Virus record (IMG/VR): IMGVR_UViG_3300031853_000013
Span: 1-64,000 of that record
Direction: 5' to 3' (one strand)
Origin: a virus
Lineage: Duplodnaviria; Caudoviricetes
DNA: 64,000 nucleotides
Part shown: positions 214 to 43,084 of the stretch, in pieces
Position numbering within the stretch: the stretch's first letter is position 1
Layout: every line of letters begins with the position of its first letter
Program-made: the position numbers and the translations under genes
The notes under the pieces: generated by a model
Seen by the model: only the letters and a program-made list of their open reading frames with translations
Database searches by the model: none
Told to the model about the DNA's origin: nothing

Positions 214-238
214 ATTATAGGAACTGTTTAGTTTGCGA
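214..238 (-). promoter_or_regulatory. TCGCA-N7-CA-N5-YWTWAT element 1
   Basis: TCGCA AACTAAA CA GTTCC TATAAT; heads tRNA-like RNA 1. Confidence 0.8.
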
Positions 239-249
239 GATTATGTATA

Positions 250-777
250 TCAGACATACCTAAACTTATATCCCATCGTATGGCGTCTGGCGCCGATTAA
301 ACATTTATGGATATTAGATTGTTGACAACCAAGTACCCTAGCAGCTTCCGTACCACTTCGAAACCAGTGCTCTGATCCGTCAGGATAAGTGGCTATAATA
401 ACTTTAGCAAAGGATTCGCCCATTTTTAGAGACCGGCTACCGTACGTGTTATTATAACGAGCATCGCACCATTCTAGATTATCGCTTCTATTATTATATG
501 GATCTTCATCCTTATGGTTAATGCATTTATAGCAGTTCGGATTTGGAACGAACGCAACTGCTACAAGACGATGGACGTACTCGGTTTTCGAAAAGGATCC
601 TAGACGAATATGAACTTGAAGATATCCGCTTGTAGATTTTGTATTTCTTAAAACATGATACGAATCGTATTTTCCAAAGTTATATCTACAACTTCTTACT
701 CGACCGTAATTACTAACCTGATACCCATCATATTTAGTATTTACCCATACTTCACATTCTTTCTCGCGAAATATCAA
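250..777 (-). CDS. NUMOD4-HNH homing endonuclease
   Basis: YQVSNYGRVRS (NUMOD4), YVHRLVAVAF...INHKDEDPYNNRSDNLEW (HNH), C-terminal SGTEAARVLG HTH. Confidence 0.9.
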   Translation of the reverse strand: MIFREKECEVWVNTKYDGYQVSNYGRVRSCRYNFGKYDSYHVLRNTKSTSGYLQVHIRLGSFSKTEYVHRLVAVAFVPNPNCYKCINHKDEDPYNNRSDNLEWCDARYNNTYGSRSLKMGESFAKVIIATYPDGSEHWFRSGTEAARVLGCQQSNIHKCLIGARRHTMGYKFRYV

Positions 778-3700
778 AAAGAGTCAGACTCTCCAATAAA
801 CTCATTAACATCGCCAAACTTATTGATTTCAGCGATTGCATCGTCGACCAGCGCTCGATAATATCGTTTATCAACAAGGCGGTCATAATCATCGTTTTTG
901 ATCAACTCGGACTCAAGCCATCGATAGCCTTTTGTTCCGGTGACAGAATCGTATTTAATAATCGAAACTGATTCACCATCGACGTCCTTAATAGCTGAAG
1001 CGGTACGATAAAGCCAGCCTCCTCCAGCCCCTTGAACTACTGGAACAAACTCTCCAACACGCCCTACATACCGATAAGCATGCTCATCCTCGGATAACTG
1101 TTCATTGCAGTCTAACACTAGATCGGTTTTTGCCGACTTAGTAACGCATAGATCCTTGAATGTAATAGGCTCGTGAGAGAACAGGGTTTTGAAAATGTAT
1201 GGGTCTTGGAAGCGTGCGCCAGTAGCAGTCCATTGACCGCCATGGTCAGCATTATCACCTGGTATAGTACCATAAATAGATTGGCACCGATCTGGCGTCA
1301 TGTATTTTGCTATATAGATAGCATCGTTAGTAAGACACATGCGATCGTATACCGCTTCAAGCTCAAAATGATAACCATACTTTTCCGCAAAGTTCATAAC
1401 AAACTCTACTATAATAGGATCAGCATCTGCTATTTTGATAGAGTCAGTCTTTATATGCACGACCTTATAGCCTTTAGATTCAACGGCCTCTTTGAGGTCG
1501 ACGAAGAACAAAGCTCCTCGCTTAGCTACAATATTATCGATATTCCTTGGATCTCGAAAACGATTATCATAACTAGCCGATGTAAGACCATACACACTAT
1601 TAATAGCTGTCTTTAAAGCATTAGATAAGTCCTTAGGATTAACACGGCCCGACTGTATAAGGTCTACATATCGTGAGAGCTTGCCGTCTAGTATAGAAGA
1701 CATCTTATCCCAGTCTTTATGCTTAATATAAACACGGGCCAAAACAAGCTGATAATAAATCTCAGTATATTTTGGGCCAAACAAGCATTCTGCAACGGCC
1801 GAATGAGGATGACAAGAGGTTAGGTCGATAAGTGCCACATTATAGTGAATGCCAGGGACAGATCTTACAAGGCCACCGTTCTTAGTATCCTCACCTTTAT
1901 ACATGCTTTTTCCATGATCAAAAGTATATCCCTCAAAGTAAGGGAGTATAGATCTTGCCGAACCGAACGAATTTTTAACCATGTTTGGACAATACTTGTG
2001 GTAAAAATCCATAATCTCTGGTTCAACAGTCATTACTGGTTTCGAAAGATCTCGATATCTAAATTGACCTTGCGGATGCATATCATTCCCGAATATAAGC
2101 TTGGCAGTAAGTTGATTAGTTGTGTTATTGGCAGTGCCTCCAGAAATATCAGCAAGGATAACGCGTGCCATATAATCTCCACGAAGATGATCGAACAGCG
2201 CTTCGGTACTAATGACATCATTAACACAATAATCGGCGACCTCTTGCCATTTATCTTCATCGATGGGACTATTCCAATCGTAACTTAACTCTAAGTGATG
2301 AATATCAAGTTTGATTTCCCACTTTTTAAGACTCATCTTATTACCTGCAGACGCAAAGTCATATATGTCTGTATACGACATGTTATAAGCTTCTCTAAAC
2401 GAAGCATTCTTAGACTCGTTATTAACTATGCGTTTGCTAAGGTTATACAGCTCGGCGTTTGTATATCCAAGCATACGAGCATAAAGGATGTGATTGTCAT
2501 AGCTACGATTATTGAAACCGATGAGACTATATTGGCATAATGATTTAATCTGTGACGGAGTGGGATTTATCCACACAACGGGCTTATTTTCGACACCCTT
2601 TAATTTCCATACTACAACAAATAGATTAGGAAAAACCTCAACGTCAAAAAATACAAATCTAGACTCATCAGGATCGACGCTATTGCTGCTAAGATGCTCA
2701 GAATCTCCGCCAACAGTAGCCGCTTCGAGTTTCTCATTAACACCCGCATCATCGCCTTCGTCTTTATCCTCAGACTTAAACTTCATCTGGTTAACAACCT
2801 TTAAACACCGAAGACTCTGATTACTGGCCTGCGCTGCAAACGACATGACCGCTGGACGCATGTCACTAACGTCATACTCGGAACCACTATCATAAGCATC
2901 CTTTAACGCCTTGGCAATGAAATCGATACTCGAGCTAGTGTCAGCATGATACTCCTTCTTGAGATTTCGAAGTATCACTGTTCTAAGTCCCTTTTCGGTT
3001 AATACCACTTGCTGATTTATCACTTTGTCAGCATCCTCCTTTAACGGTAACCCGCTATTAATATTTGAAATATCAAGATTATTGCACAGTGTAAGCTTTC
3101 GTCTAAGACTGCTGCCACCAGTAAACACTTTAATCTCAATATTATCATCATAGATACTACTAAGTCGTTCGGGATCACCGCCCGTATAAATATAATGCAG
3201 ATGAACGCCATTACCAGACTTGCTAACTTCAGCATATGTCGGCGGAAACTTAGCGGCCGCTGCAAGATTGAGTTCCAGTGATTTCTTTTTATCTTTATCC
3301 TTGAGATCGAAGTCGATGACTATATGATTAACTGGAACCTTAACAAAATGAACTTCAGTCTGATCTATCTTATCAAGGGTAGATTTTGTATTCTCCCACT
3401 TATAGCACGGCACCTCGTTACCATAAGCTATACGACTTCGCTGTGCTGGACAACCTTTACACTGAATATAAAACTTGTTATCTACGTCAGCTCCAAAATC
3501 AGTATATGGTTTCAAATCCAGCCAGTCTGGAAGGTTCGGCGTCAAAACTGGTGTCGCACATGCTGACCCATTAAATTGATCAGCTTTGGCCAAAGGCATG
3601 ATATCGTCGCTATCAGAGAAAAATTTGTCATCTCTAAATTTTACATATACGTTGGAGCATACGACATCATCAATTCGCATCTTTTCGTAAAATTCTTCAA

Positions 3701-6128: not shown

Positions 6129-6174
6129 AAAAACCAAAGGGGCCTGTATTAGACCCCTAATAGGTTTAAATGTT
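6129..6174 (-). terminator. Hairpin terminator, copy 1 of a 46-bp exact duplication
   Basis: AGGGGTC-TAATACA-GGCCCCT-TTGGTTTTT; identical to 6483-6528. Confidence 0.75.
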
Positions 6175-6417
6175 CACTCGTCCTGTTTCATAATATTCAG
6201 TTAGTTTTTCAGGATAATGCAGCATAAGTAAACCCATAGCAGTCATAATTGGCAGAAGACGCTCATAGTCAGATTCGCTAACCTCAGATTTTATGCGATT
6301 AATCCATTTGATAGTTAACTTCCAAACAGAAATCTCATAATCATCCGGACTTTTGGTCTGTTTCTCAGTCATCAACCACTCCTGCAATGAGTATACTCCA
6401 CGTTTTGTTTCATCCAT
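6166..6417 (-). CDS. Hypothetical cassette protein
   Basis: Own motif, 5' hairpin, GGAGG RBS and terminator. Confidence 0.75.
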   Translation of the reverse strand: MDETKRGVYSLQEWLMTEKQTKSPDDYEISVWKLTIKWINRIKSEVSESDYERLLPIMTAMGLLMLHYPEKLTEYYETGRVNI

Positions 6418-6458: not shown

Positions 6459-6483
6459 ATAATGGAGGTTGTCCCGATTGCGA
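6459..6483 (-). promoter_or_regulatory. TCGCA element 2
   Basis: TCGCA ATCGGGA CA ACCTC CATTAT then hairpin AGAGT-GGAA-ACTCT. Confidence 0.8.
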
Positions 6484-6530: not shown

Positions 6531-6770
6531 TCAAATACCGTTGTCGCCCTTGATGTCCAGATGTCTTGCCAATTTGCCGAGGTATGCCATCAGCTGTAGA
6601 CCAGCACATACAGTTCCCAGCAGCCAGCAATCAGCATACCACCAATCGCAAGACTCATAAAGAATCTCACTAATGGCACAGCCGACTACAAACGCCAGGC
6701 CGATAATGCTCAGCCTAGTAATAATCATACCTACATAATACATTGCCATCTTAAACTTCTTAGTTTTCAT
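6531..6770 (-). CDS. Small two-TM membrane protein
   Basis: Two hydrophobic segments; AAGGAG RBS; cassette context. Confidence 0.7.
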   Translation of the reverse strand: MKTKKFKMAMYYVGMIITRLSIIGLAFVVGCAISEILYESCDWWYADCWLLGTVCAGLQLMAYLGKLARHLDIKGDNGI

Positions 6771-6814: not shown

Positions 6815-6839
6815 ATAATAGGAGTTGAAAAAGATGCGA
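6815..6839 (-). promoter_or_regulatory. TCGCA element 3 (TCGCAT subclass)
   Basis: TCGCA TCTTTTT CA ACTCC TATTAT. Confidence 0.8.
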
Positions 6840-6907
6840 TAGAAGATTTTTGCGTTAAGCTAGCAGTATGCGACAGCGGAGTTTTTGGTGTAACCATTAA
6901 TATGCAA
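6834..6907. repeat. 34-bp phased repeats upstream of element 3
   Basis: ATGCGA at 6834 and 6868, ATGCAA at 6902. Confidence 0.75.
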
Positions 6908-6978: not shown

Positions 6979-7329
6979 TTAAAACTTATTCACTTCCAAA
7001 TCACCAGACACGATAGACTCGAGAGTCTCAGACTTACCGGTCATCTTACCAAGCTCAAAGTAAGCCTCATTCGACTTCTGACCCAATGTTGATCCGTCCT
7101 GCAGACCCTGAATATAGCCGATCGTACGTCCCACGGACAGTGCAAATGCTCCTGCACACATGCCCATGCCGACATAAGCGATCTCCTCATCATGATCGTA
7201 GACGAAATCGACGACCGCGTCCTTAGCCTTCTTAAGACCACCCTTGACCTTGTTCCATACACTGGACTTCTTAGTCTCAGTAACCTCGTCAACCTCTACA
7301 GTCATTTCTTTCAGTTCGTTCTCATTCAT
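6979..7329 (-). CDS. Membrane-anchored cassette protein
   Basis: Basic amphipathic N-terminus, DH motif, TM helix; hairpin plus U-tract at about 6931-6970. Confidence 0.75.
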   Translation of the reverse strand: MNENELKEMTVEVDEVTETKKSSVWNKVKGGLKKAKDAVVDFVYDHDEEIAYVGMGMCAGAFALSVGRTIGYIQGLQDGSTLGQKSNEAYFELGKMTGKSETLESIVSGDLEVNKF

Positions 7330-7376: not shown

Positions 7377-7401
7377 ATAATAGGACCTGTCCAGTTTGCG
7401 A
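7377..7401 (-). promoter_or_regulatory. TCGCA element 4
   Basis: TCGCA AACTGGA CA GGTCC TATTAT. Confidence 0.8.
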
Positions 7402-8463: not shown

Positions 8464-8487
8464 AAAGGAGCCTGTTTAAGACTCCTT
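8464..8487 (-). terminator. Hairpin containing the stop codon of 8476-8772
   Basis: AAGGAGTC-TTAAACA-GGCTCCTT-TCTCTTTT; 8451-8486 matches 24761-24796 at 35/36. Confidence 0.7.
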
Positions 8488-8772
8488 ATCCTTCTGCATA
8501 TGATCAATTTCTTGGACCATTTTCTCGATCTCAACCAACGCAAACGGATCATCGTGGATTTGACTAAGAATTGTCTCTATAGCACTTTTGTACAACATAG
8601 CTGCGATCTTATCAAGCCCTTTTAGGTCCGATTCTAATGAGCGCATAGCATCATTACTCAACTCACGCATCATCGCCTCGTACATTTCCGGCTCGTCTTG
8701 CTTCAGCTTTGCTACATCATGTGCCATTATAGCCATCTCAGTCATTTCCTCGTTCACTTTGATCTCATCCAT
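8476..8772 (-). CDS. Hypothetical helical cassette protein
   Basis: AAGGAGG RBS; cassette context. Confidence 0.75.
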   Translation of the reverse strand: MDEIKVNEEMTEMAIMAHDVAKLKQDEPEMYEAMMRELSNDAMRSLESDLKGLDKIAAMLYKSAIETILSQIHDDPFALVEIEKMVQEIDHMQKDKES

Positions 8773-8809: not shown

Positions 8810-8834
8810 ATAAAGAGGGTTGCTTTATTTGCGA
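8810..8834 (-). promoter_or_regulatory. TCGCA element 5
   Basis: TCGCA AATAAAG CA ACCCT CTTTAT. Confidence 0.8.
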
Positions 8835-10524: not shown

Positions 10525-10741
10525 TTTCCTCTTCCTCCTTTACACTTCTAATGCCGAAATGGTCGATTAGCGCTTTGGAAATATAACCAAGATCAGACGA
10601 ATAAAATCCGCTCTGGCGCTCGCCGTTCTCATCCTCATATTCGATGCGGTATTGTGGGGTTCTTATAGCATACGTACCATCCCTTGACGTTGTGTACTCA
10701 TATCCCACACCGATCTTTATGAATTTAAGTTCTTTGTTCAT
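10517..10741 (-). CDS. Hypothetical; paralog of the N-terminal domain of 9991-10524
   Basis: YRIEYEDENGERQSGFYSSDLGYIS vs YSIIYGDEDGEHNMGYSSYDLDVIS. Confidence 0.7.
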   Translation of the reverse strand: MNKELKFIKIGVGYEYTTSRDGTYAIRTPQYRIEYEDENGERQSGFYSSDLGYISKALIDHFGIRSVKEEEENE

Positions 10742-11291
10742 TACTAACAGCCTCCTTTAATTTATTAAATGCTTCCATCGTTTCCTTGAAGTTCTGATCA
10801 CGATACTCAGGTACCCACCGTTCTGAATCTGCCCAGAAAGACAGACGTATTACAAGTCTCTGTCTTATCTCATATGAACCATATTGACTCATAATAAGCC
10901 GGGCCATATCCATTTGATCTTTACTAGGATTTACCAAATGCATATTGCCAAAATGATAATGCTGATCCCTGATTCGAAAATCGTGCTCTACGATAAACTC
11001 GGGAATGTCATTTATGATTTCTATCAACTTATCATAATCAAACCATCCGAACATAATGTATCCTTTAGTAAAGAAATCCTGTTCATGTCCAGAGCAAGAA
11101 TATAAAGTATTATACCCAGCATCGTTAAGCGCCTGGATACAATCTGAGATCATATTGTCGACCTCTACTTCATCGTTACCTATCTTTACTACAGATTGCT
11201 TTCTTGTCGGATCAGCCGCCCGCTTCTCTAAGAGCTTTTTGTAGCCCATATCGAGTTCCTCCATTTTCTTCCTACGCTCCTCAATAGTCAT
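10725..11291 (-). CDS. Hypothetical with TYW3-like LNxxGxxTxxSCSGH motif
   Basis: IQALNDAGYNTLYSCSGH; start moved to the ATG after GGAGG. Confidence 0.45.
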   Translation of the reverse strand: MTIEERRKKMEELDMGYKKLLEKRAADPTRKQSVVKIGNDEVEVDNMISDCIQALNDAGYNTLYSCSGHEQDFFTKGYIMFGWFDYDKLIEIINDIPEFIVEHDFRIRDQHYHFGNMHLVNPSKDQMDMARLIMSQYGSYEIRQRLVIRLSFWADSERWVPEYRDQNFKETMEAFNKLKEAVSNEQRT

Positions 11292-11517: not shown

Positions 11518-11542
11518 ATTAAGGGGGTTGCAAAAGTTGCGA
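11518..11542 (-). promoter_or_regulatory. TCGCA element 6
   Basis: TCGCA ACTTTTG CA ACCCC CTTAAT. Confidence 0.8.
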
Positions 11543-11601: not shown

Positions 11602-11853
11602 TCATTCAATGGTGATCATATATGTTTCGTAATTCTCACATAAACGGTTACAGTTATCGAGTACCTCGTCTATTGTATATTGTCCCTCCAACTTAGTTCT
11701 CTCAAGTACGTTTCCACGACCGTCCCGATATTCAAATCCTTCTTTATACGTACCATCGGGATTACGTTTAAACATAGCTTGACAGTTGTGTCCATTAGAG
11801 TAATACAATATACGAACGACTCTGGACTCATAAAACCGTTTCATCATTCCCAT
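11602..11853 (-). CDS. Hypothetical cassette protein
   Basis: AAGGAGG directly after element 7; hairpin at about 11566-11594. Confidence 0.75.
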   Translation of the reverse strand: MGMMKRFYESRVVRILYYSNGHNCQAMFKRNPDGTYKEGFEYRDGRGNVLERTKLEGQYTIDEVLDNCNRLCENYETYMITIE

Positions 11854-11869: not shown

Positions 11870-11894
11870 ATTATGGTCCCTGCCCAGTTTGCGA
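11870..11894 (-). promoter_or_regulatory. TCGCA element 7
   Basis: TCGCA AACTGGG CA GGGAC CATAAT. Confidence 0.8.
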
Positions 11895-11934: not shown

Positions 11935-12108
11935 TTAACCCTCCTTACTCTCATTCGTTACCTTGATCTTTCCTTCAACTGTGTGAAGTCTTACATTACG
12001 TACACCAACGATACTTACGAGTTCGCTGTATTTCGCTTTCACGATAGCGTAACCCTCATTGTCGTTTACATACATGCCGCTTGCCTTCATAACATCGTTC
12101 TTAGTCAT
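11935..12108 (-). CDS. Small hypothetical cassette protein
   Basis: AAGGAG RBS; hairpin at 11901-11924. Confidence 0.65.
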   Translation of the reverse strand: MTKNDVMKASGMYVNDNEGYAIVKAKYSELVSIVGVRNVRLHTVEGKIKVTNESKEG

Positions 12109-12148: not shown

Positions 12149-12173
12149 ATTATAGGAGTTGAAAATCATGCGA
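12149..12173 (-). promoter_or_regulatory. TCGCA element 8 (TCGCAT subclass, upstream repeats to about 12239)
   Basis: TCGCA TGATTTT CA ACTCC TATAAT. Confidence 0.8.
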
Positions 12174-12231
12174 AAGAGTTTTTTGGTGTAACCAATATTG
12201 TGAGAGAGCAGAGTTTTAGGTTTAGCTAATA

Positions 12232-12722
12232 TCATACGAACAGCTGTTTAAAAGAACACTCCGGGCACTTAGTATATGCACAATGAGTCGTAGCTACAAA
12301 ATCATTATCAGCATAAATAGTATCCTCTTCATCCTCGTCCGTAAATATAAAATCTTCTGGTCCACTTACATCATACTCACATCTGCAAGCACCACAAGTG
12401 ACCGGGAAGATACCGAAATACTTTCCATTCTTTGTTACTTTCATCTCTTATCCTCCTCAACGCAGTCATATTGCGCAACACCACGACACCAATATAAAAT
12501 TTCAGTACCGGCTTTTGCCCTTTCAACATCGTCAATGCAGCAATCGTATTTGTTTATTTGGCGTTGCAAGCTAGCTACAAATCCGGTCAAATTGCGAACT
12601 GATATCGGTTTACGTACTTCCGGTTCTGCTGACAGGTATTCTTCGCAGCTACGGTATCGTCTCATTGCCGCAAGTGCGTTCTCGTAAAGCTGAGTAATAC
12701 GTTCATCCCTTGTATCTTTCAT
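12232..12722 (-). CDS. Two coupled hypothetical genes (12232-12444 Zn-ribbon; 12441-12722)
   Basis: CxxC...CxxC in the first; overlapping start/stop. Confidence 0.6.
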
Positions 12723-14228: not shown

Positions 14229-14621
14229 TTACATCCACAGATCCGGTTGCTTCCAATCAGGTACAACGATCCCACTGACAATATATGCCGCAGTAAGCTC
14301 ATACTCGTCAGCGTAGTCCCTTCCGCCAATAGCCACCATCGTAGTATTCGTGCTGTAATCAGTCACATAATACACGATCTGCTTGACGAAAGGACCACAC
14401 TTCGGATGAGCAAACTTGGCATAAGCCTTGCCATCATTTCTCGTGATACCTTTCACAATTTGATCTGAGACGAAGTTCTTGGTCTCTTCGCTCTCTACAT
14501 CTAATACACATACTTCTTTAGTTTCCTTGATTTCTTCCGCTTCTACCTCACATGGCTGTACCATAGCTACAAATGCCATAATACCAACCAGCATACCTGT
14601 AAAAGTCTTTTTCATATTCAA
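14229..14621 (-). CDS. Secreted/signal-peptide cassette protein
   Basis: MKK plus hydrophobic core and VEA cleavage-like site. Confidence 0.7.
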   Translation of the reverse strand: MNMKKTFTGMLVGIMAFVAMVQPCEVEAEEIKETKEVCVLDVESEETKNFVSDQIVKGITRNDGKAYAKFAHPKCGPFVKQIVYYVTDYSTNTTMVAIGGRDYADEYELTAAYIVSGIVVPDWKQPDLWM

Positions 14622-14664: not shown

Positions 14665-14689
14665 ATTAAGAGGATTGAAAAAGATGCGA
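14665..14689 (-). promoter_or_regulatory. TCGCA element 9 (TCGCAT subclass; second ATGCGA at 14718)
   Basis: TCGCA TCTTTTT CA ATCCT CTTAAT. Confidence 0.8.
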
Positions 14690-14746
14690 AAGCAGGGTTT
14701 TAGGTTTAGCTAACAGTATGCGAAAGCAGATTTTTAGGTCAAACCG

Positions 14747-26873: not shown

Positions 26874-27080
26874 TTACGCCGCCTCGTCCTCATAAGTTAC
26901 CAACCAATAATAGTCTCTGTCAAAATACATGTCTCTATTGTCGCCGTGTCTGTCAATAGTCCACGTCAGAATAACACCATCTTTGCTGTGCTCTACGGTA
27001 TAATTCCAACCATTTTCAGCACATTCTGCCTTGATGTATTCCTCAGCAGAAATTCTGTTCAAAGTTTCAATAATCAACAT
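26874..27080 (-). CDS. Small cassette protein
   Basis: AAGGAG RBS; stop inside hairpin; weak similarity to 24526-24747 (IETLN). Confidence 0.7.
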   Translation of the reverse strand: MLIIETLNRISAEEYIKAECAENGWNYTVEHSKDGVILTWTIDRHGDNRDMYFDRDYYWLVTYEDEAA

Positions 27081-27122: not shown

Positions 27123-27147
27123 ATTATAGGAGTTGAAAAAGATGCGA
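27123..27147 (-). promoter_or_regulatory. TCGCA element 15
   Basis: TCGCA TCTTTTT CA ACTCC TATAAT. Confidence 0.8.
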
Positions 27148-28550: not shown

Positions 28551-28823
28551 TTACGCCCCCATCTCCTCTATTTCGACTTCTACAGCCGGTTCTTCAACAA
28601 TAGTCTCTGTCGGAGTGTCCTCCATGAACTCCGGGTTTGCTGCTGTCATGTCCGTCGGGATCTCCGGTGCAGCGTCAGGTGTCGGATCACCATCGGTCTT
28701 CCGGTTCATCAAGGCCTTAATGCCAGCCTTTGCACCTTCGGATCCGAGAATGGAACCTACTCCTGCAGCCATCGCGGTGATAGCACCAACGGCGACCTTC
28801 ATAGCAACTTCGTTCATCTTCAT
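28551..28823 (-). CDS. Membrane-anchored acidic cassette protein
   Basis: Gly/Ala-rich TM; ends GA-stop inside hairpin GGGGCG-TAA-TGCCCC. Confidence 0.7.
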   Translation of the reverse strand: MKMNEVAMKVAVGAITAMAAGVGSILGSEGAKAGIKALMNRKTDGDPTPDAAPEIPTDMTAANPEFMEDTPTETIVEEPAVEVEIEEMGA

Positions 28824-28877: not shown

Positions 28878-28902
28878 ATTATGTAGGCTGTCTATTTTGC
28901 GA
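28878..28902 (-). promoter_or_regulatory. TCGCA element 16
   Basis: TCGCA AAATAGA CA GCCTA CATAAT. Confidence 0.8.
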
Positions 28903-31320: not shown

Positions 31321-32112
31321 TTACTCCTTGACCAAATCGTGAGGTGGCACGTTTGTGATGAACCAAGTATCTCCAAGCTTGTCGTTATCATAAGCCATAT
31401 TGTAAGGTGCAATATCGTCAACACTATCCCATCCGTAGTTGTCAGAAACCTTAAAATACTTGCTTCCGTTACCATGGATCATATGGTATACATCGTTCAC
31501 GGTCAAACATCTTTTAGTTTCAAACGTCTTAATAGCTTCTCCGGCAATATGATAGGCGAGTGAACGCGATGGAATCTCAAGATACTGGCTGAAAGCTGTC
31601 GGTAAGATTCGATCATTATCGCTTCGGAACTGTCTGAGATCTCTGGCTAACGGCAGACCCTCGATGTAATACTTATCTTCATCTGTTCGCACAACCAAAT
31701 TACAAATATCCATGTAATTATACCCGTAGTCAATCATACGATACGGAATGTTCGACATGATTGTTCCATCTTGATCATACTCGATAGCGTCGGACAGAAT
31801 GTCATAAATATCAAGCTCGGTTACTACTCCAGAATCTTCAGCGACTTCAGTGATACGCTGCTGTACATACTTGGCCATCAGATACGAATTGAAATGAACG
31901 TCTGACAGGATAGATACCACCTTGATTTTACTGGTGTCGACCTCGGCAACGTTGCTAACATACTCTACGTCAGACGGTTTTGGTTCAGACTTAAACACGT
32001 TCTTAACCGATTCCTTGACATCGGTGATCTTCGATTTATCAACGTATTTGTCATATACGTGATAAGCGGCTACACCAAGGCCCAGTACTGCCAGTCCAAT
32101 AAGTTTACTCAT
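31321..32112 (-). CDS. Membrane-anchored protein with two copies of a repeated phage domain
   Basis: GVVTELDIYD...YGY and CLTVNDVYH...NYGW. Confidence 0.65.
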   Translation of the reverse strand: MSKLIGLAVLGLGVAAYHVYDKYVDKSKITDVKESVKNVFKSEPKPSDVEYVSNVAEVDTSKIKVVSILSDVHFNSYLMAKYVQQRITEVAEDSGVVTELDIYDILSDAIEYDQDGTIMSNIPYRMIDYGYNYMDICNLVVRTDEDKYYIEGLPLARDLRQFRSDNDRILPTAFSQYLEIPSRSLAYHIAGEAIKTFETKRCLTVNDVYHMIHGNGSKYFKVSDNYGWDSVDDIAPYNMAYDNDKLGDTWFITNVPPHDLVKE

Positions 32113-32737
32113 AATTATTCTCCTTTAAATCAATATATTTCTGAACATCGAGGTTATAAAGTTTCAGAGCCTCGATTAATTCATCTAAGCATTTCGGTCC
32201 GAAACACCTAATTTCCATGAGATGTTTGGGATCAGTCTCGTAAAGCTGCTTTAAATCCTCAATACCATCGCGAGTTAAGCAATGATACAGTCGAACAGAT
32301 AGATTCATTTCTTTGACCGAAGGATTCTCAAATGCACTTTGCTTATGCTCAATGCAATCGTGGTAGCCGTTCAAGTAGCCCTCCCGATAAGCTACATTCG
32401 CACGTTCTCCGGACCTTACTTCAAAGAACATCATAGGCCCTTTAAATACAATAGCACTATTACTAGGTCGTCTAAAAAATCTAGCCACATGTGATAAAAT
32501 CTGCTGTACTCTAGCACTGCTGCGGTCGATTGCATCACCAACTTCTTTCTGGGTTTTGTTATCGCGGTAGTAAAGATTAATTACATCTTGACTACGGTCG
32601 TCCATCGTTGACATGACGTAATAAAACCCTGCCAAAGTGTTGACGCTCGTGTGTTCTTCAGCCTCCTTTTCAGTCCAAGCATACACAACCGACAAGAAAT
32701 TATACGGATAAGGATAATCCGGTTTCTTAGTTCTCAT
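32105..32737 (-). CDS. Sigma-70 region 4 HTH fused to RNA polymerase alpha C-terminal domain
   Basis: MDDRSQDVINLYYRDNKTQKEVGDAIDRSSARVQQILSHVARFFR (sigma4); SVKEMNLSVRLYHCLTRDGI...LMEIRCFGPKCLDELIEAL (alphaCTD). Confidence 0.85.
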   Translation of the reverse strand: MRTKKPDYPYPYNFLSVVYAWTEKEAEEHTSVNTLAGFYYVMSTMDDRSQDVINLYYRDNKTQKEVGDAIDRSSARVQQILSHVARFFRRPSNSAIVFKGPMMFFEVRSGERANVAYREGYLNGYHDCIEHKQSAFENPSVKEMNLSVRLYHCLTRDGIEDLKQLYETDPKHLMEIRCFGPKCLDELIEALKLYNLDVQKYIDLKENNYE

Positions 32738-33363: not shown

Positions 33364-33479
33364 ATGGAAACACAGCTTTGCGGTCTTCGAACCCGCGTCT
33401 CCTTCACAACATAGTCGTAAAGGCGCATTACCTTTATGCTATTTTGTTACCCGTAATCTCGGGTCGCTGTGTCTCCATC
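33364..33479 (-). ncRNA. tRNA-like RNA 2 (D arm, extended anticodon-less arm, T arm, extra hairpin)
   Basis: 13-bp terminal stem ATGGAGACACAGC/GCTGTGTTTCCAT; TA-GCAT-AAAGGTA-ATGC; CCTTTACGAC-TAT-GTTGTGAAGG; GCGGGTTCGAAGACCGC; U-tract follows. Confidence 0.75.
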
Positions 33480-33951
33480 ATTATAGGACTTGCATAGTTT
33501 GCGAATCACTATTTGTACGGACAGCTCTTCAAGCTCAGCTACTCTACGTGCTTGTTCGATATTATAGTGCCCCACGATATCATAGACAGTCGTTTCGTTG
33601 ACCGCCTTTAACATAGAGTCGTTAAGATTCTCCGCGACATCTCGAATATCATTCGAATTCAGTATCTTCATCGTCGCTATCATGCTCCTCTCGGGTTAGA
33701 TCCCATCTATCAGAGTAGTCAGTAACTCGGTCCAGATAATAGTCAACGGGAATGTAGTCATCACCATACTCATTAGCATCTTCAGCATTCCATCGCAAGC
33801 ACAACGACACATCATCGGGGTCGATGTCCTCTTCGTGACAGAATGTGTCAAATAATGCTACGGCTTCGTCAACGGTTTTAGCACAGAATTCGGTCTCATC
33901 TTGTTTATCATCATCTATCCATTCGAAGTGATAGGTTTTAATGAATGCCAT
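33447..33951 (-). CDS. Two hypothetical genes (33447-33683; 33649-33951 acidic)
   Basis: RBSs; the first runs into element 17 and the ncRNA 5' end. Confidence 0.55.
33480..33504 (-). promoter_or_regulatory. TCGCA element 17
   Basis: TCGCA AACTATG CA AGTCC TATAAT. Confidence 0.8.
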
Positions 33952-36033: not shown

Positions 36034-36897
36034 TTAATTAATAGTATAGTTGTTACTTTCATAGCAGCATCTCGGCTTTGTATCAAGTATGATCTCAAGA
36101 CACGGGATCTCAGTATCAGGAATCTTCGCAGCCGAGAAGTGATACTTAATAAGTTCGCCATTTGCTTCCCAGTAGAAGATGTTACCAACGTCTGTTTCAC
36201 TAACACCTCTACCATGATTTGCGATATTAACTGCCACGGTATTAAAGTCGTACAGCAAATCGTTGAGCATTACCTCTTGGCAGTTATTAATAGCGTGATT
36301 AGCTCGGATGAAGCACTCCTTGACATCTTCAATTCTAGCACTAAAGATCTGTCCTGTCATTGGCGCCATAAATATCGTGTAACTGGTATTGTCTGAAGCA
36401 AAGCGCTTAACTTCATCATCTACCGGAGTGTTCTCAAGCTTCTTTCTTGTTACGGCAGCTTCGATCTCACCAGCCTTCTTCTCTCCGAACTTCTCAATAG
36501 TTTTCTTCTGATACTCCTTTAATGACATATCGGCAATCGTGTACGCTGCTGAAAGAGCTGTCTGACGCTTGTCGCTGATGTAGTCCGAGCCGATAACTGC
36601 TGCACTTGAGAGAATAAAAGATACAGCTGTCGGCCAGTATGCGGGCGTCACTGCCTTGAATGTCTCGAATGGTGTAAGCTTAATGCTACTACGTTCTTCC
36701 TGTGGAATACCTTCTTCGTCGGCCTTTAGTGCCTTAGCCTCATCGATCAGAAGATCAGCCTTAGGCTTAGCATTTACTGCAAATATCACAGTAGTGAAGA
36801 ATCCTGCAATACCTGCTGCCGTAAGAAGTTTTGGGGAGTGCTTAACCAGCGTCTTCACTCCACCATGTGTGATCTCAGTGATCTTCGTTGTGTCCAT
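36034..36897 (-). CDS. DUF6353-like phage protein
   Basis: HSPKLLTAAGIAG...AYWPT...RQTALSAAY. Confidence 0.7.
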   Translation of the reverse strand: MDTTKITEITHGGVKTLVKHSPKLLTAAGIAGFFTTVIFAVNAKPKADLLIDEAKALKADEEGIPQEERSSIKLTPFETFKAVTPAYWPTAVSFILSSAAVIGSDYISDKRQTALSAAYTIADMSLKEYQKKTIEKFGEKKAGEIEAAVTRKKLENTPVDDEVKRFASDNTSYTIFMAPMTGQIFSARIEDVKECFIRANHAINNCQEVMLNDLLYDFNTVAVNIANHGRGVSETDVGNIFYWEANGELIKYHFSAAKIPDTEIPCLEIILDTKPRCCYESNNYTIN

Positions 36898-36932: not shown

Positions 36933-37018
36933 GAGATGATAATGCCCCTGGGAATCGAACCCAGTCTATATAGCCATCTACTATATCGCGTCCCGTCCGC
37001 GAATCATTATCATCACTC
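36933..37018 (-). ncRNA. tRNA-like RNA 3 (10-bp acceptor-like stem, non-canonical anticodon loop)
   Basis: GATGATAATG/CATTATCATC; CGCG-GACGGGA-CGCG; TATAG-TAGATGG-CTATA; CTGGG-TTCGATT-CCCAG; no CCA. Confidence 0.8.
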
Positions 37019-37019
37019 C

Positions 37020-37044
37020 ATTATGGAAGTTGCTTAGTTTGCGA
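37020..37044 (-). promoter_or_regulatory. TCGCA element 18
   Basis: TCGCA AACTAAG CA ACTTC CATAAT. Confidence 0.8.
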
Positions 37045-37835: not shown

Positions 37836-38117
37836 TTACGCCCCAGTCTCCTCTTCGGTTGTTTCGTCCTTCTCGTCGGATTTGTCATCCTCATACGTAC
37901 TATCCGGCAGTAATGCCTCAGTAACATCATGGGCGGTCTGCCCCGCAATGCCCGCCGCACCGACCATAAGTGCAATATAACCAATCGCCTCAATCGGGTT
38001 CTTGATTTTGTTGTCACCTACGATCTTGCAGCCAACTCTGTTTGCAAACATGCCTCCGCCAATCGCACTTACCCCGCTCACCACTGCAAGGATAGTTTCC
38101 TTCGTCTTCTTGTTCAT
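37836..38117 (-). CDS. Two-TM cassette protein with acidic tail
   Basis: Ends GA-stop in the same hairpin as 28551-28823. Confidence 0.7.
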   Translation of the reverse strand: MNKKTKETILAVVSGVSAIGGGMFANRVGCKIVGDNKIKNPIEAIGYIALMVGAAGIAGQTAHDVTEALLPDSTYEDDKSDEKDETTEEETGA

Positions 38118-38158
38118 AACAAAATTCCTCCTAAATATAAATTTGGACATTACATCCT

Positions 38159-38183
38159 ATTATAGACCCTGCGCCGTTTGCGA
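38159..38183 (-). promoter_or_regulatory. TCGCA element 19
   Basis: TCGCA AACGGCG CA GGGTC TATAAT. Confidence 0.8.
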
Positions 38184-38633: not shown

Positions 38634-38858
38634 TCAATCGTTCTTCCACGGCTGATACTCGTCATACATCTTCTGATACTTGGCTTCCAGCGTTGTCAAA
38701 TACTTAGTCATTTTCTCAAGCGCGGACATCTCCTTAGCCGTAAGTGTGCTTTCGACATACTTGCTGTCGAGCATCTTACGAGCTCCATTAGCCGCGTCAT
38801 GTGAATAATACTTAGCATCCACAAGTGCTTTCTTCTCCAGTTCATTTAACTTTTTCAT
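38634..38858 (-). CDS. Small helical cassette protein
   Basis: AGGAGG RBS; hairpin at about 38594-38615. Confidence 0.7.
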   Translation of the reverse strand: MKKLNELEKKALVDAKYYSHDAANGARKMLDSKYVESTLTAKEMSALEKMTKYLTTLEAKYQKMYDEYQPWKND

Positions 38859-38902: not shown

Positions 38903-38927
38903 ATTATGAGGGCTGTCTATTTTGCGA
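38903..38927 (-). promoter_or_regulatory. TCGCA element 20
   Basis: TCGCA AAATAGA CA GCCCT CATAAT. Confidence 0.8.
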
Positions 38928-38963: not shown

Positions 38964-39413
38964 TTACCAGGTATCCCTGAGGCAGACACTGTCCTTGTAA
39001 ATTTCCGTTCCAATATAGGCCTTATCAAACGGTTCTTCACCGTTGATACCTGCCATAATATTGACAACGATATCTTTATCAGCACAAATGTCTCTGATTT
39101 CCTCAAGCTTACCCATAATGGCAGCCTCGGTCTGATCAATATCGATCTCCTTTCTCAGCATTTCTGCAATTTCCTGATCGTCTACATTCAGCGTGTTCGG
39201 TCCAGCTACCTTTTCGCCGCCTGTGATAACTCCGCCAAGATTACCGAACTCATCGTCGACCGAAGAGCACGCCTTCTTAAAGAATACAAATCCGCCAACA
39301 GCTACTGCTGCGCCGATTGCTCCTTTAACAATCGTACCCTTGTGGTCGTGCCAGAATGATTCGGTTTTAACCTTAACCTCATTCACACGCTCCTTAAAAG
39401 TCTTCTTTTCCAT
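38964..39413 (-). CDS. Membrane-anchored cassette protein; paralog of 39989-40441
   Basis: EKKxFKER...W.D...TM...KKA...C.DK shared. Confidence 0.75.
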   Translation of the reverse strand: MEKKTFKERVNEVKVKTESFWHDHKGTIVKGAIGAAVAVGGFVFFKKACSSVDDEFGNLGGVITGGEKVAGPNTLNVDDQEIAEMLRKEIDIDQTEAAIMGKLEEIRDICADKDIVVNIMAGINGEEPFDKAYIGTEIYKDSVCLRDTW

Positions 39414-39463: not shown

Positions 39464-39488
39464 ATAAAGAGACCTGTCTAGATTGCGA
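39464..39488 (-). promoter_or_regulatory. TCGCA element 21
   Basis: TCGCA ATCTAGA CA GGTCT CTTTAT. Confidence 0.8.
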
Positions 39489-39535: not shown

Positions 39536-39913
39536 TTACTTCAGGATCCGCATATCCCGCAAGATGTCCTCTGTGTATTCGCCAGCACGCTTACGCTGAA
39601 CAAGTTCGGTTCTCTCAGCATTCGTCATGTTCCGCTTGAGCTCCCAATGAAGCCCGGTGGCTGGATCATAGTAGCATTTATCCATGCGATCTTCGTGTCT
39701 GTCTTGTGCACTACCGCGTACGAGTTTAATTAATTTTACCGTACCAGTAGCCGCTCCAATAACGACAGGAAGAGCTCGAACAATCTCGCCACTATGATCA
39801 GCCGTCCATCTGAGAGCCTCATTAGCTCTATTGCTTACCGCGGTTTTGATCTCTGAGATTTTGTCTCGAATCTTATCCTTTGTACTGCGTGTGTCGTTTA
39901 CAATAATTTCCAT
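39536..39913 (-). CDS. Cassette protein with hydrophobic segment
   Basis: WTADH, YYDPATGLHWELKR; RBS 2 nt after element 22. Confidence 0.75.
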   Translation of the reverse strand: MEIIVNDTRSTKDKIRDKISEIKTAVSNRANEALRWTADHSGEIVRALPVVIGAATGTVKLIKLVRGSAQDRHEDRMDKCYYDPATGLHWELKRNMTNAERTELVQRKRAGEYTEDILRDMRILK

Positions 39914-39931: not shown

Positions 39932-39956
39932 ATTATAGAACCTGTCTAATTTACGA
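39932..39956 (-). promoter_or_regulatory. TCGCA element 22 (TCGTA variant)
   Basis: TCGTA AATTAGA CA GGTTC TATAAT. Confidence 0.72.
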
Positions 39957-40474: not shown

Positions 40475-40499
40475 ATTAAGTGAGTTGTCTAAATTGCGA
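40475..40499 (-). promoter_or_regulatory. TCGCA element 23
   Basis: TCGCA ATTTAGA CA ACTCA CTTAAT. Confidence 0.8.
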
Positions 40500-40523
40500 A
40501 AAAAAAAAACAAGGAGGAAGCTG

Positions 40524-40748
40524 TTACACTTCCTCGTTCTCGTAAAACCGCTGTTGTCTGGCAGCCTCTTCAAGTGCCTGTGATAAGTGGTCATACTCTT
40601 TGTAATCATGTCTCTCTGTGCACGGTCCTTCTTCTCGAATCGTGAAGAGATGATACTCAACAAAGTAGCCTTCCTGCCTATCAATCTTAACCTTGAAGAA
40701 TCTACCATCGATCTTAACCTCGTATTTTACAATATTCGTAATAGTCAT
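40524..40748 (-). CDS. Cassette protein in triplicated frame (ends EEV)
   Basis: Shares leader and 3' hairpin with 41949 and 42801 but has an unrelated core. Confidence 0.75.
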   Translation of the reverse strand: MTITNIVKYEVKIDGRFFKVKIDRQEGYFVEYHLFTIREEGPCTERHDYKEYDHLSQALEEAARQQRFYENEEV

Positions 40749-40795: not shown

Positions 40796-40820
40796 ATTAA
40801 GAGGATTGAAAATCATGCGA
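40796..40820 (-). promoter_or_regulatory. TCGCA element 24 (TCGCAT subclass)
   Basis: TCGCA TGATTTT CA ATCCT CTTAAT; ATGCAA 33 bp upstream. Confidence 0.8.
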
Positions 40821-40905
40821 GAGCAGAGTTTTGGAGTAACAAGTAGCATGCAAGAACGGCAAAAAACTAAAGAGACCTGTATAGATCCCTTTAGCTCATC
40901 AATAC

Positions 40906-41166: not shown

Positions 41167-41191
41167 ATAAAGAGAGCTGTCTAGATTGCGA
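41167..41191 (-). promoter_or_regulatory. TCGCA element 25
   Basis: TCGCA ATCTAGA CA GCTCT CTTTAT. Confidence 0.8.
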
Positions 41192-41225: not shown

Positions 41226-41531
41226 TCAATCGACATACGTAAATCTAGTTGTCAGAATAAAGCCGGTCTTCAAGTCGTAATCATACTCAGTCTGCGTACA
41301 ATTGCTCGGAGATACGACAATAAACGTCTGAACTTCTTCAACGCTGTCGGGATCTTCCCAGTGGCCCTCGCCATACTTATTCGATATTTCCTCCTTCATG
41401 TCTATAATGCCTTGCTCATACCATTTAAGTTCTCTTGTCTCGGTGATTTGTTCTGCGTGACTAGTTGTGTTTCCACATCCTGTACATATAATAGCACATA
41501 TCACCATAATCATAACAAAAGTCTTTTTCAT
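41226..41531 (-). CDS. Putative lipoprotein
   Basis: MKK plus hydrophobic core and lipobox-like CTGC. Confidence 0.7.
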   Translation of the reverse strand: MKKTFVMIMVICAIICTGCGNTTSHAEQITETRELKWYEQGIIDMKEEISNKYGEGHWEDPDSVEEVQTFIVVSPSNCTQTEYDYDLKTGFILTTRFTYVD

Positions 41532-41572: not shown

Positions 41573-41597
41573 ATTAAGAGGATTGAACCATTTGCGA
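41573..41597 (-). promoter_or_regulatory. TCGCA element 26
   Basis: TCGCA AATGGTT CA ATCCT CTTAAT. Confidence 0.8.
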
Positions 41598-41639: not shown

Positions 41640-41861
41640 TCAGTCCTCCTTTTTCGGCTCACCTGCCGGATGCATGATACCGATCTCCCTCTCTTCCTTA
41701 GCGTAGAAAAGCTCAAATTCGTTGATGTACTCCCTCACGTCTCTATCACTGAGCCACACACTTGTGTCAGTGCTGAAACGCTTTTTGTACGCCTCCTTTA
41801 CAGCCTCTTCAAACGCCTTGTCGAGAGCGTTCAGTCTCATTTCTTTTACATGCATATCCAT
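41640..41861 (-). CDS. Small cassette protein
   Basis: GGAGG RBS; terminator AGGGGCGT...ACGCCCCT-TTCTTTTTTT. Confidence 0.7.
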   Translation of the reverse strand: MDMHVKEMRLNALDKAFEEAVKEAYKKRFSTDTSVWLSDRDVREYINEFELFYAKEEREIGIMHPAGEPKKED

Positions 41862-41903: not shown

Positions 41904-41928
41904 ATAATAGGAATTGACCAGTTTGCGA
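41904..41928 (-). promoter_or_regulatory. TCGCA element 27
   Basis: TCGCA AACTGGT CA ATTCC TATTAT. Confidence 0.8.
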
Positions 41929-41948
41929 GAAAAACAAGGAGGAAGCTG

Positions 41949-42167
41949 TTACACTTCCTCGATTTGTACTTGGCAGAGATCAATAAGCCTCTTATCCAAG
42001 GTTCGGGTTTTTGCATCAAATTCTTCTCTGGTTAACTCACCACTCAAATACTGGATCCTCCAGTCGTTGAGTAGATCAGCTATCCGATCTATTAATTGAT
42101 TATTAGCCTTCACCTGCATCGGTCTTACAATCGTCTCTACATATTCCTTCTTAGTCATTATAATCAT
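41949..42167 (-). CDS. Cassette protein (ends EEV); paralog of 42801-43010
   Basis: VKANNQLIDRIADLLNDWRIQYLSG vs VKANDQIVNRIADLLNDIRIEYISG. Confidence 0.8.
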   Translation of the reverse strand: MIIMTKKEYVETIVRPMQVKANNQLIDRIADLLNDWRIQYLSGELTREEFDAKTRTLDKRLIDLCQVQIEEV

Positions 42168-42211: not shown

Positions 42212-42236
42212 ATTAAGAGGATTGAAAATCATGCGA
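42212..42236 (-). promoter_or_regulatory. TCGCA element 28 (TCGCAT subclass)
   Basis: Identical to elements 24 and 30. Confidence 0.8.
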
Positions 42237-42304
42237 GGAGCGGAGTTTTGGTGTAGCCAGTAGCATGCGAGAGAAGAGTTTTTGGTACGACCAGTGTTAT
42301 GCGA
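42231..42304. repeat. 34-bp phased repeats upstream of element 28
   Basis: ATGCGA at 42231, 42265, 42299. Confidence 0.8.
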
Positions 42305-42365: not shown

Positions 42366-42740
42366 TTACTTGTCCGTCTTAAAGAAGTCGCGAACATCAG
42401 TGACCCTGTTCTTGAACCACTTCGGTACGACCTGATCTTGGTCATATACCATCATCAGGAACGTCGACCCGAGTCCAGCTAAAATAGTGGATCCGCCAGC
42501 AATTACAGCATTAGGATCAACTTTCTTCCGCTGGGGTACAGTCTGTGCTACATTTGCACGCTGTTCCGCCAAAACAGTAAGATTGTCAATCGCCCTGCTA
42601 TATTCGCAAGACTGACTCCCTTTCTCAGCCAGAATCTTCGCAGCGTCCTGCTGGGCAACCGCGATCTGTTCGTCCAGTACTTCAAGTACCGTCTTGGGTT
42701 TCTGTGTTTTAGTCTTCTTTTTGAACATTTTCTTGTTCAT
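42366..42740 (-). CDS. Cassette protein with C-terminal hydrophobic segment
   Basis: AGGAGG 1 nt after element 29. Confidence 0.7.
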   Translation of the reverse strand: MNKKMFKKKTKTQKPKTVLEVLDEQIAVAQQDAAKILAEKGSQSCEYSRAIDNLTVLAEQRANVAQTVPQRKKVDPNAVIAGGSTILAGLGSTFLMMVYDQDQVVPKWFKNRVTDVRDFFKTDK

Positions 42741-42755
42741 ATAAAACACCTCCTC

Positions 42756-42780
42756 ATTATAGTCCCTGTCCCGTTTGCGA
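42756..42780 (-). promoter_or_regulatory. TCGCA element 29
   Basis: TCGCA AACGGGA CA GGGAC TATAAT. Confidence 0.8.
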
Positions 42781-42800
42781 GAAAAACAAGGAGGAAGCTG

Positions 42801-43010
42801 TTACACTTCCTCAGTTTCTACGTTCCACAATTCAGCGATCCGATCTTTAGTCATCTGCCACTTCTCTTCGAATTCCTTTCGTGATATCTTTCCGCTTATA
42901 TATTCAATGCGAATATCGTTAAGCAGGTCAGCTATACGATTAACTATCTGATCGTTAGCCTTGACAATCATCTGTCTACCGAATCTGTCGTCAAACTCTT
43001 TCATAGTCAT
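42801..43010 (-). CDS. Cassette protein (ends EEV)
   Basis: Paralog of 41949-42167. Confidence 0.8.
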   Translation of the reverse strand: MTMKEFDDRFGRQMIVKANDQIVNRIADLLNDIRIEYISGKISRKEFEEKWQMTKDRIAELWNVETEEV

Positions 43011-43059
43011 AATAATTCCTCCTTTGTTTTGTGGGGATCAGCCCTTTGCTTCTCCCTCT

Positions 43060-43084
43060 ATTAAGAGGATTGAAAATCATGCGA
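43060..43084 (-). promoter_or_regulatory. TCGCA element 30 (first after the structural module)
   Basis: TCGCA TGATTTT CA ATCCT CTTAAT; ATGCAA 34 bp upstream. Confidence 0.8.

Follow-up and report, generated by a model that had tools for sequence, protein, structure and literature searches.

We analyzed a window comprising the first 64 kb (positions 1–64,000) of the 91,112-bp genome of a Caudoviricetes virus (IMG/VR record IMGVR_UViG_3300031853_000013), with a focus on a repeated element of fixed spacing, TCGCA-N7-CA-N5-YWTWAT. The genome holds ~134 genes, all on the minus strand. In transcription order, it starts with a gene for a single-stranded DNA-binding protein (SSB), a motif copy and genes for a helicase, a PD-(D/E)XK nuclease and a 902-amino-acid (902-aa) protein. 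Next come a GC-rich gap, which contains a 23-bp inverted repeat, and genes for TerS-like, HNH and TerL proteins, and the structural genes continue with the portal, a protease–capsid fusion, the tape measure and tail fibers made of leucine-rich repeats (LRRs). Last in order is a 43-kb arm that holds 30 motif copies and closes with a D5-like primase-helicase gene and a tRNA. Because relatives share this gene order, with the ~900-aa gene as their last large gene, the contig is a circular permutation, and a 31st copy (90,451–90,475), which adjoins the window start when the genome is read in this way, is part of the same non-structural arm. A first-pass annotation had described the motif-bearing region as an accessory region divided into cassettes. 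The division stands, and the region is not accessory only but the whole non-structural arm, with the ThyX, RNA ligase, D5-like primase-helicase, SSB and helicase genes included.

The exact pattern matches 29 times in the window, in every case on the minus strand, against a chance expectation of 0.01 copies and a maximum of one in 100 dinucleotide shuffles. Relaxing the first box to TCGTA adds a 30th copy (Table 1), and the pattern TCG[C/T]A-N7-CA-N5-YWTWAT has zero matches on the plus strand of the window. The window copies span 214–238 through 43060–43084, and no full copy lies in the structural arm (43.1–88.3 kb). Across the 31 copies of the whole genome, T1, C2, G3, A5, C13, A14, T22, A24 and T25 never vary, all but one have C4, the spacing is constant throughout, and purines are conserved at positions 26–31 (AGRRGG), just past the hexamer. 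A position weight matrix (PWM) of 31 columns scores the true sites at 25.8–38.7 bits, with the next best matches at 10.0 bits on the coding strand and 11.4 bits on the opposite strand. Nine copies have a TCGCAT..TTTTCA form (class II); the other window copies are class I, save the single TCGTA variant. These scans and position counts agree with the first-pass annotation, which had listed 30 coding-strand copies (29 TCGCA, one TCGTA) with a fixed CA at positions 13–14, an AT-rich hexamer at 20–25 and no spacing variation, each directly upstream of a gene or non-coding RNA and none in the structural module.

A Shine–Dalgarno (SD) box and an open reading frame (ORF) lie within 120 nt downstream of ~27 of the 31 copies, and the rest precede one tRNA, two tRNA-like sequences and an unassigned stretch of ~226 nt. 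Four RNAs had been counted initially; one is a bona fide tRNA (Rfam 45 bits; ARAGORN leaves its anticodon as 'tRNA-???'), two have a canonical T-arm and sub-threshold Rfam scores, and the ~226-nt stretch has no Rfam match. tRNAs also directly follow the promoter in relatives (FP_oengus, near 2910; P092, near 20067 and 20455; 1706, near 13051). Upstream, a hairpin and T-run directly abut 10 of the 31 copies. A terminator scan returned 31 terminator-like sites versus 11.8 ± 3.4 in shuffles; under stricter criteria, 18 remain on the coding strand, all in the motif arm and none in the 45-kb structural arm, with one on the opposite strand genome-wide. This distribution, together with the copies that follow terminators, indicates that the cassette picture is real. 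One terminator hairpin, GAGGAAGTGTAACAGCTTCCTC, occurs identically three times on the minus strand, each time immediately before a promoter copy (42791–42812, 41939–41960 and 40514–40535).

The 902-aa protein, encoded outside the window (genome 84,724–87,432, minus strand), matches PHROG 4291 over its whole length (E = 0) and, weakly, the Pfam RdRP family, and its C terminus carries a helix–turn–helix (HTH) resembling sigma region 4 (σ4) and resolvases. An SGADFDGD loop at residues 509–516 is invariant in 34 homologs and eight lineages. A phmmer search of PDB chains gave no match, so fold comparison alone identified its structural relatives. The AlphaFold model, based on a multiple sequence alignment (predicted local distance difference test score of 80.8), resembles QDE-1 (Foldseek E = 5e-11; VIA Z 17.0 over 375 residues), Thermus-phage P74 gp62 (Z 16.2), plant RDR2 (Z 13.3), P23-45 gp96 (Z 9.8) and the catalytic barrel of cellular RNA polymerase (RNAP) large subunits (Z ~10–11). 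It places two fused modules, of the DeoR-like HTH and extended winged-helix types, at the N terminus and the resolvase-like HTH at the C terminus. Judged by this model, the 902-aa protein is a putative single-chain two-barrel RNAP related to QDE-1 and YonO, with fused HTH modules.

Homologs of this polymerase are found in ~250 phage records (250 of 50,697, ~0.5%) at 37–50% identity over their full length, and the TerL protein is ~78% identical to that of the same phages. Relatives in viral contigs are at most 48% identical; those in protein clusters reach 63–75%, and one of them (L014) was used here. The family comprises >8,000 protein clusters in metagenomes and occurs in ~250 isolated phages of Arthrobacter, Gordonia, Streptomyces, Lactococcus and others; its usual label in these records is only 'HTH DNA-binding protein'. 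Koert et al. flagged it as a putative RNAP and a signature gene of an Actinobacteria–Firmicutes phage supergroup, the only one of the lineage's signature genes described with DNA-binding HTH domains, in a text from which the word 'promoter' is absent (bioRxiv 10.1101/842583). The family is thus one predicted earlier as RNAP but uncharacterized, and a full-text literature search, which did not cover subscription papers, found no description of promoters for it.

We compared eight polymerase-bearing relatives, namely phages of Streptomyces, Arthrobacter, Faecalibacterium and Lactococcus and oral, gut and metagenomic contigs, which cover two host phyla and 33–59% GC. In all eight, the fixed-spacing architecture precedes small genes and tRNAs on the coding strand, and the opposite strand has 0–3 matches. 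The consensus of the metagenomic L014, whose polymerase is 66% identical, is TCGCA-N7-CA-N5-YATAAT, then AGA (seven copies). Those of the other genomes are TCGCA-N7-CA-N5-TTAAAT followed by GAGACCCC in Streptomyces phage RosaAsantewaa (four copies), nCGCA...TATAAT followed by GAGAAC in the oral D_HF4_2 (five copies), TCGCG-TAAATTA-CA-N5-TATAAT in Arthrobacter phage Circum (eight copies), ACGCG-AAAAATN-CA-N5-CTTTAT followed by GGAAGG in Faecalibacterium phage FP_oengus (11–12 copies), YCRCA-TGTTTTA-CA-N5-TATAGT followed by AGAAAG in Lactococcus phage 1706 (12 copies) and TTTWA-GTTTTA-CA-N5-TATAAT followed by GAAA in Lactococcus phage P092 (ten copies). The proximal half is lineage-wide, and the distal box drifts by lineage (TCGCA, TCGCG, ACGCG, YCRCA and TTTWA). 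Persistence of one architecture across two host phyla and this range of GC content argues that its reader is phage-encoded.

The association also holds in the reverse direction. A scan of IMG/VR with TCGCA-N7-CA-N5-TATAATAGA matched >120 contigs, from which we picked ten near-complete ones by the DNA pattern alone, five with multiple copies and five with a single copy. Nine of the ten encode a full-length polymerase homolog (E ≤ 1e-161), compared with a base rate of ~0.5%; the tenth has one motif copy and no homolog. Two features expected of promoters of two-barrel phage RNAPs (the P23-45 gp64/gp96, YonO and crAss gp66 kind) are found here: a polymerase with a metal-binding DxDGD loop is encoded, and the motif co-occurs with its gene.

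Our comparisons make it probable, with good confidence, that the elements are promoters of the phage's own 902-aa two-barrel RNAP and not of the host sigma-A (σA) holoenzyme. In the mechanism that we propose, the polymerase would bind duplex DNA at the distal TCGCA box and at the CA one helical turn downstream (10.5 bp center to center), melt the AT-rich hexamer and start RNA at a purine at or next to the 3′ edge of the hexamer, which would then lie at about −6 to −1 instead of −12 to −7. Between them, the 31 promoters and 18 intrinsic-terminator-like hairpins would divide the non-structural arm into ~30 short units, which encode small proteins, functions in replication and nucleotide metabolism, one tRNA and tRNA-like RNAs. 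Transcription of the 45-kb structural arm, which has neither promoters nor terminators, would come from upstream, where tandem promoters with a variant ACGTC box precede the nuclease–polymerase operon. The first polymerase molecules could plausibly arrive with the phage DNA. The first-pass annotation had proposed a phage-specific promoter class that lacks a TTGACA box and splits the region into cassettes; the comparative and geometric evidence supports this proposal and refines it with a likely reader encoded outside the window.

In the hexamer of a σ70 promoter, A2 and T6 hardly vary, and transcription starts 6–8 nt downstream of it. The element has the TATAAT hexamer in common with bacterial σ70/σA promoters and is unlike them in its lack of a −35 box and of a fixed A2, its rigid spacing and its probable start at the hexamer edge instead of ~7 nt downstream. 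Positions −4 to +2 around the motif start carry at most 0.5 bits, and no TTGACA-like hexamer lies 16–18 bp upstream; the conserved TCGCA sits 14 bp from the hexamer. The second hexamer base (the −11 equivalent) is split between A (15 copies) and T (16), and it is T in the consensus of FP_oengus (CTTTAT) and of the Streptomyces phage (TTAaAT), with the final T6 retained. None of the copies has a TG extension. σ70-type matches are not enriched over shuffles in either arm (two scans, with 61 versus 50 ± 7.4 and 24 versus 20 ± 4.7), and we therefore rejected σA promoters as drivers of either arm. The best such match in the motif arm (26141–26169, minus strand; TTGACA-17-AATAAT with TG, 11/12) lies ~115 nt upstream of the copy at 26002–26026 and may be a lone host-type promoter.

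Sequences just past the hexamer bear on the start site. Five solid cases here, and 8 of the 12 copies of Lactococcus phage 1706, have an SD box that begins 0–5 nt past the hexamer; the copy at 42756–42780 reads TATAAT followed directly by GAGGAGG...ATG. The 30 nt past the hexamer fold at −4.8 kcal/mol, compared with −1.9 ± 0.26 kcal/mol for shuffles, and the stems start 0–3 nt past the hexamer. Because a start ~7 nt downstream would truncate these SD boxes and stem-loops, transcription probably starts at the hexamer edge.

These features also bear on a host-based alternative in which σA uses the hexamer as its −10 box while a conserved phage factor bound at TCGCA/CA replaces the −35 contact in the style of T4 MotA/AsiA, possibly with the 902-aa protein as the activator. 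A TATAAT-like consensus, a distal box roughly at the position of the MotA box and host-type intrinsic terminators that punctuate the arm would all fit such a scheme, and since −10 recognition by primary sigma factors is universal across bacteria, conservation across phyla would be conceivable under it as well. We nonetheless consider it unlikely. The −11 equivalent is T in half of the copies and in the FP_oengus consensus, the TG extension is absent, the spacing is wholly rigid, and SD boxes and 5′ stem-loops begin 0–5 nt past the hexamer. Moreover, the intact, family-invariant DFDGD two-barrel core would be pointless in a mere activator. The −10 features thus do not fit a MotA/AsiA-type promoter, and the sole sigma-related accessory ORF, which combines σ4 with an RNAP α-subunit C-terminal domain (αCTD), is absent from the motif-sharing relatives.

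This ORF (32105–32737, minus strand) encodes a 210-aa protein with Sigma70_r4 (32.4 bits) and RNA_pol_A_CTD (55.2 bits) domains, both above the Pfam cut-offs, and no sigma region 2. Recognition of −35 elements normally falls to the σ4 HTH, and with both domains confirmed by Pfam, the fusion could in principle steer host RNAP to TCGCA. That it does so as the common reader is extremely unlikely. Its best match among eight motif-sharing relatives has an E value of 2.4, that is, they have no homolog of it, and it is therefore not the conserved reader. A tblastn search of the phage collection gave only nine partial αCTD hits in unrelated phages, the protein is unrelated to 1706 orf47, and its gene lies downstream of motif promoters and so cannot start the program. 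It may instead modulate host RNAP, as a decoy or adaptor. Pfam and PHROG scans of 40 proteins, among them every one of ≥400 aa apart from the tape measure, gave no hit to a T7-like RNAP. We also rejected a hairpin or cruciform promoter of the N4 type: base composition accounts for the apparent pairing of the C-rich spacer with the purine-rich start, and chimeras fold equally well.

The element might alternatively not be a start signal but act within read-through transcripts, on RNA processing or stability, or serve as a boundary for recombination or module exchange. It is strand-specific and intergenic, three copies sit in a repeated 47–77-nt module with paralogous downstream genes, and mosaic junctions in phages often coincide with promoters. 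The structure expected of an RNA signal is missing, however: no conserved or covarying fold spans the element (native −4.40 versus −4.79 ± 0.25 kcal/mol for chimeras), and ten copies lie just past terminators, where read-through RNA would be scarce. As for exchange, similarity beyond the motif is confined to the copies at 40820, 42236 and 43084, over the same 47–77 nt, and this triplet reads as one local cassette duplication; the other 28 of 31 copies are alike within the motif only. Neither version explains the two-way association with the polymerase, and we regard both as very unlikely. The recombination boundary, which had been offered initially as an alternative, is not needed.

With promoters of the 902-aa polymerase as the preferred explanation, its mode of entry can be considered. 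The polymerase operon is fronted by promoters of the same family, here and in relatives, and the 1706 homolog ORF75 (39% identity over the full length) is a 'structural protein' in GenBank EU081845.1. A gene placed behind its own promoter family and this annotation make virion delivery, of the kind known for the packaged RNAPs of N4, crAss-like phages, phiKZ/AR9 and P23-45 (gp96), plausible, and we hold the arguments for and against entry of the polymerase with the virion to be evenly balanced. The polymerase (genome 84,724–87,432) and four proteins of the head and packaging region (72,847–80,158) share an N-terminal (D/E)FL.H(Y/S)(G/W) signature, whose FL.H(Y/S)(G/W) core occurs eight times in the first 60 aa versus 0.6 ± 0.8 in shuffles and may be a common virion-targeting or cleavage signal.

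Several points weigh against a dedicated phage polymerase or parts of its proposed mode of action. The hexamer consensus is identical to the σ70 −10 box, and the host holoenzyme may contribute. The canonical hairpin-U terminators suggest that either the enzyme responds to them or host RNAP also transcribes the arm. Genes whose SD box abuts the hexamer could be translated from read-through transcripts. DNA-dependent activity of the enzyme is predicted by analogy with distant relatives only (YonO and P23-45 gp64/gp96). The recognition helix of the C-terminal HTH stays the same even in P092, which has a different distal box, so any assignment of DNA-binding modules to boxes is tentative. The ORF75 label is a database annotation. 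Finally, we discarded the FL.H(Y/S)(G/W) signature as a virion-targeting or packaging signal, as it is absent from orf62/orf71, further 'structural' proteins of 1706, and sporadic in relatives.

Among characterized systems, the closest are the two-barrel RNAPs gp64 (non-virion) and gp96 (virion-borne, fused to the tape measure) of Thermus phage P23-45, which have their own GC-rich and AT-rich promoter motifs upstream of early genes that co-occur with the enzyme in related phages (PMC10770324). The likeness lies in a single-chain two-barrel phage RNAP with its own, co-occurring motif, and P74 gp62, which our model matches at Z 16.2, is an enzyme of the gp64 type. The enzyme here, by contrast, is unrelated in primary sequence, carries fused N- and C-terminal HTH and winged-helix modules and has no tape-measure fusion; its putative promoter is tripartite with a TATAAT-like initiator, and its hosts are mesophilic Bacillota and Actinomycetota. 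YonO of SPbeta, a Firmicute phage, is a highly processive single-chain two-barrel DNA-dependent RNAP that transcribes a long late operon from one start, and its promoter was stated to be undetermined (PMC5467207). Neither fused HTH modules nor a multi-copy promoter has been reported for YonO, and a tblastn search of the phage collection with our polymerase found no Bacillus or SPbeta match, YonO being too distant.

The direct relatives are ORF75 of 1706 and its orthologs (Arthrobacter phages Mudcat and Circum gp98, Rhodococcus phage ReqiPepy6 and FP_oengus gp55), which are PHROG 4291 homologs in the same synteny, with the same promoter architecture in the ortholog genomes examined. Compared with these phages, ours is larger (91 kb) and has many more promoter copies and the extra σ4–αCTD gene. 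In its proposed working mode, the element resembles T7-class promoters, with a rigid ~25-bp length, a TATA-like box that abuts a purine +1, upstream duplex recognition, a purine-rich initial transcript and many copies per genome paired with terminators. The resemblance ends there: the Pol-I fold of T7-class enzymes is unrelated to that of the enzyme here, and the element reaches to about −26.

The polymerase operon itself is preceded by a tandem pair of variant promoters, ACGTCTAGTTTACAGCTCCCTTAAT followed by GATAG, with the distal box ACGTC and a standard proximal half. They are the two best sub-threshold PWM hits, and their proximal halves score 18–21 bits, inside the range of true sites. 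The pair occupies the gap before the nuclease–polymerase operon. The same place holds a tandem variant pair in L014, one copy with a deviant box in each of Circum and RosaAsantewaa, and a near-standard copy in FP_oengus. Terminator scans found no coding-strand terminator between the pair and the end of the tail genes, and it is plausible that the pair heads one long late transcript. The 45 kb of structural genes that follow the polymerase operon without punctuation would echo the single late operon and processivity of YonO.

Our data suggest a more ambitious model, which we hold tentatively and judge nearly as likely to be right as wrong. The phage would possess a self-contained, sigma-independent system in which a virion-delivered polymerase reads a tripartite duplex promoter through its own HTH and winged-helix modules and starts at the initiator edge, with distal box and DNA-binding module co-evolving, and which works unchanged in phages of Actinomycetota and Bacillota. 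If true, no mechanism of promoter recognition would have been defined earlier for YonO/QDE-1-like polymerases, and the system would be a candidate module for expression in Gram-positive bacteria independently of the host. How single-chain two-barrel RNAPs find promoters was called an open question in the YonO paper (PMC5467207). The genome offers 31 aligned natural promoters, variants of them and a candidate enzyme with fused DNA-binding modules, and the drifted distal boxes of related phages are suited to specificity swaps. Recognition of the promoter would allow early transcription units to be re-annotated across the phages of this family and provides a testable model of host-independent early transcription across two bacterial phyla.

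Table 1. Putative promoter copies, variant promoters and second-box sites, with the features next to them (window coordinates unless marked as genome).
Feature	Position	Strand	Adjoining features
Promoter copy, class I	214-238	-	tRNA 134-206
Promoter copy, class I	6459-6483	-	terminator hairpin directly upstream; ORF 6166-6417
Promoter copy, class II (TCGCAT..TTTTCA)	6815-6839	-	second TCGCAT box ~37 nt upstream; ORF 6531-6770
Promoter copy, class I	7377-7401	-	ORF 6979-7329
Promoter copy, class I	8810-8834	-	ORF 8476-8772
Promoter copy, class I	11518-11542	-	~226 nt without ORF or Rfam match, then ORF 10725-11291
Promoter copy, class I	11870-11894	-	terminator upstream; SD 3-4 nt past hexamer; ORF 11602-11853
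Promoter copy, class II	12149-12173	-	ORF 11935-12108
Promoter copy, class II	14665-14689	-	ORF 14229-14615
Promoter copy, class I	16795-16819	-	SD 3 nt past hexamer; ORF 16466-16777
Promoter copy, class II	18085-18109	-	ORF 17795-18043
Promoter copy, class II	21658-21682	-	ORF 21385-21618
Promoter copy, class I	23278-23302	-	ORF 23008-23235
Promoter copy, class I	26002-26026	-	ORF 25482-25958
Promoter copy, class II	27123-27147	-	ORF 26874-27080
Promoter copy, class I	28878-28902	-	ORF 28551-28823
Promoter copy, class I	33480-33504	-	tRNA-like 33380-33441 (16 bits, below threshold)
Promoter copy, class I	37020-37044	-	tRNA-like 36936-37013 (15.7 bits, below threshold)
Promoter copy, class I	38159-38183	-	ORF 37836-38150
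Promoter copy, class I	38903-38927	-	terminator upstream; ORF 38634-38858
Promoter copy, class I	39464-39488	-	terminator upstream; ORF 38964-39413
Promoter copy, sole TCGTA variant	39932-39956	-	terminator upstream; SD 4 nt past hexamer; ORF 39536-39913
Promoter copy, class I	40475-40499	-	terminator upstream; ORF start near 40441
Promoter copy, class II	40796-40820	-	in 64-77-nt repeated promoter and leader module; ORF 40524-40748
Promoter copy, class I	41167-41191	-	terminator upstream; small ORF ending 40980
Promoter copy, class I	41573-41597	-	terminator upstream; ORF 41226-41531
Promoter copy, class I	41904-41928	-	terminator upstream; ORF 41640-41861
Promoter copy, class II	42212-42236	-	repeated module; ORF 41949-42167 (paralog of 42801-43010)
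Promoter copy, class I	42756-42780	-	terminator upstream; SD GAGGAGG from first base past hexamer; ORF 42366-42740
Promoter copy, class II	43060-43084	-	first of arm, adjoins last tail-fiber gene; ORF 42801-43010
Variant promoter, tandem pair	genome 88,324-88,348	-	
Variant promoter, tandem pair	genome 88,458-88,482	-	
Second-box site, class II	6839-6900	-	
Second-box site, class II	12173-12235	-	
Second-box site, class II	14689-14750	-	
Second-box site, class II	40820-40880	-	
Second-box site, class II	42236-42300	-	
Second-box site, class II	43084-43145	-	

Six of the nine class II promoters have a second TCGCAT or TTGCAT box ~37 nt upstream, without a hexamer and in a repeated ACCAAAAACTC context (Table 1); the reader or a regulator may bind there as well. 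On the plus strand, the proximal half of the promoter is matched at 21 bits, without a distal box, at 46869–46893 within a tail-fiber gene; this match may be either an antisense start or chance.

The GC-rich non-coding gap with the 23-bp inverted repeat (genome 84,107–84,463), between the polymerase operon and the TerS-like, HNH and TerL genes, is probably where the physical genome ends (cos/pac region). The structural region has no close DNA relative in the phage collection by megablast, and a search of ~185,000 species genomes of bacteria and archaea returned no related prophage. A host among the Bacillota is suggested by strong AGGAGG SD boxes and a GC content of 42%. Two minus-strand genes (43129–45630 and 46414–48213) encode tail-fiber-like proteins of BspA-type LRRs (LRR_5, E = 1e-115 and 7e-85), segments of which are paralogous in two further proteins; such BspA-type fibers suggest a gut- or oral-type host surface as their target. 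Two DUF6353 paralogs are encoded on the minus strand (21690–22814 and 36034–36897) and three in FP_oengus, and on this distribution the DUF6353 protein is another lineage-associated gene.

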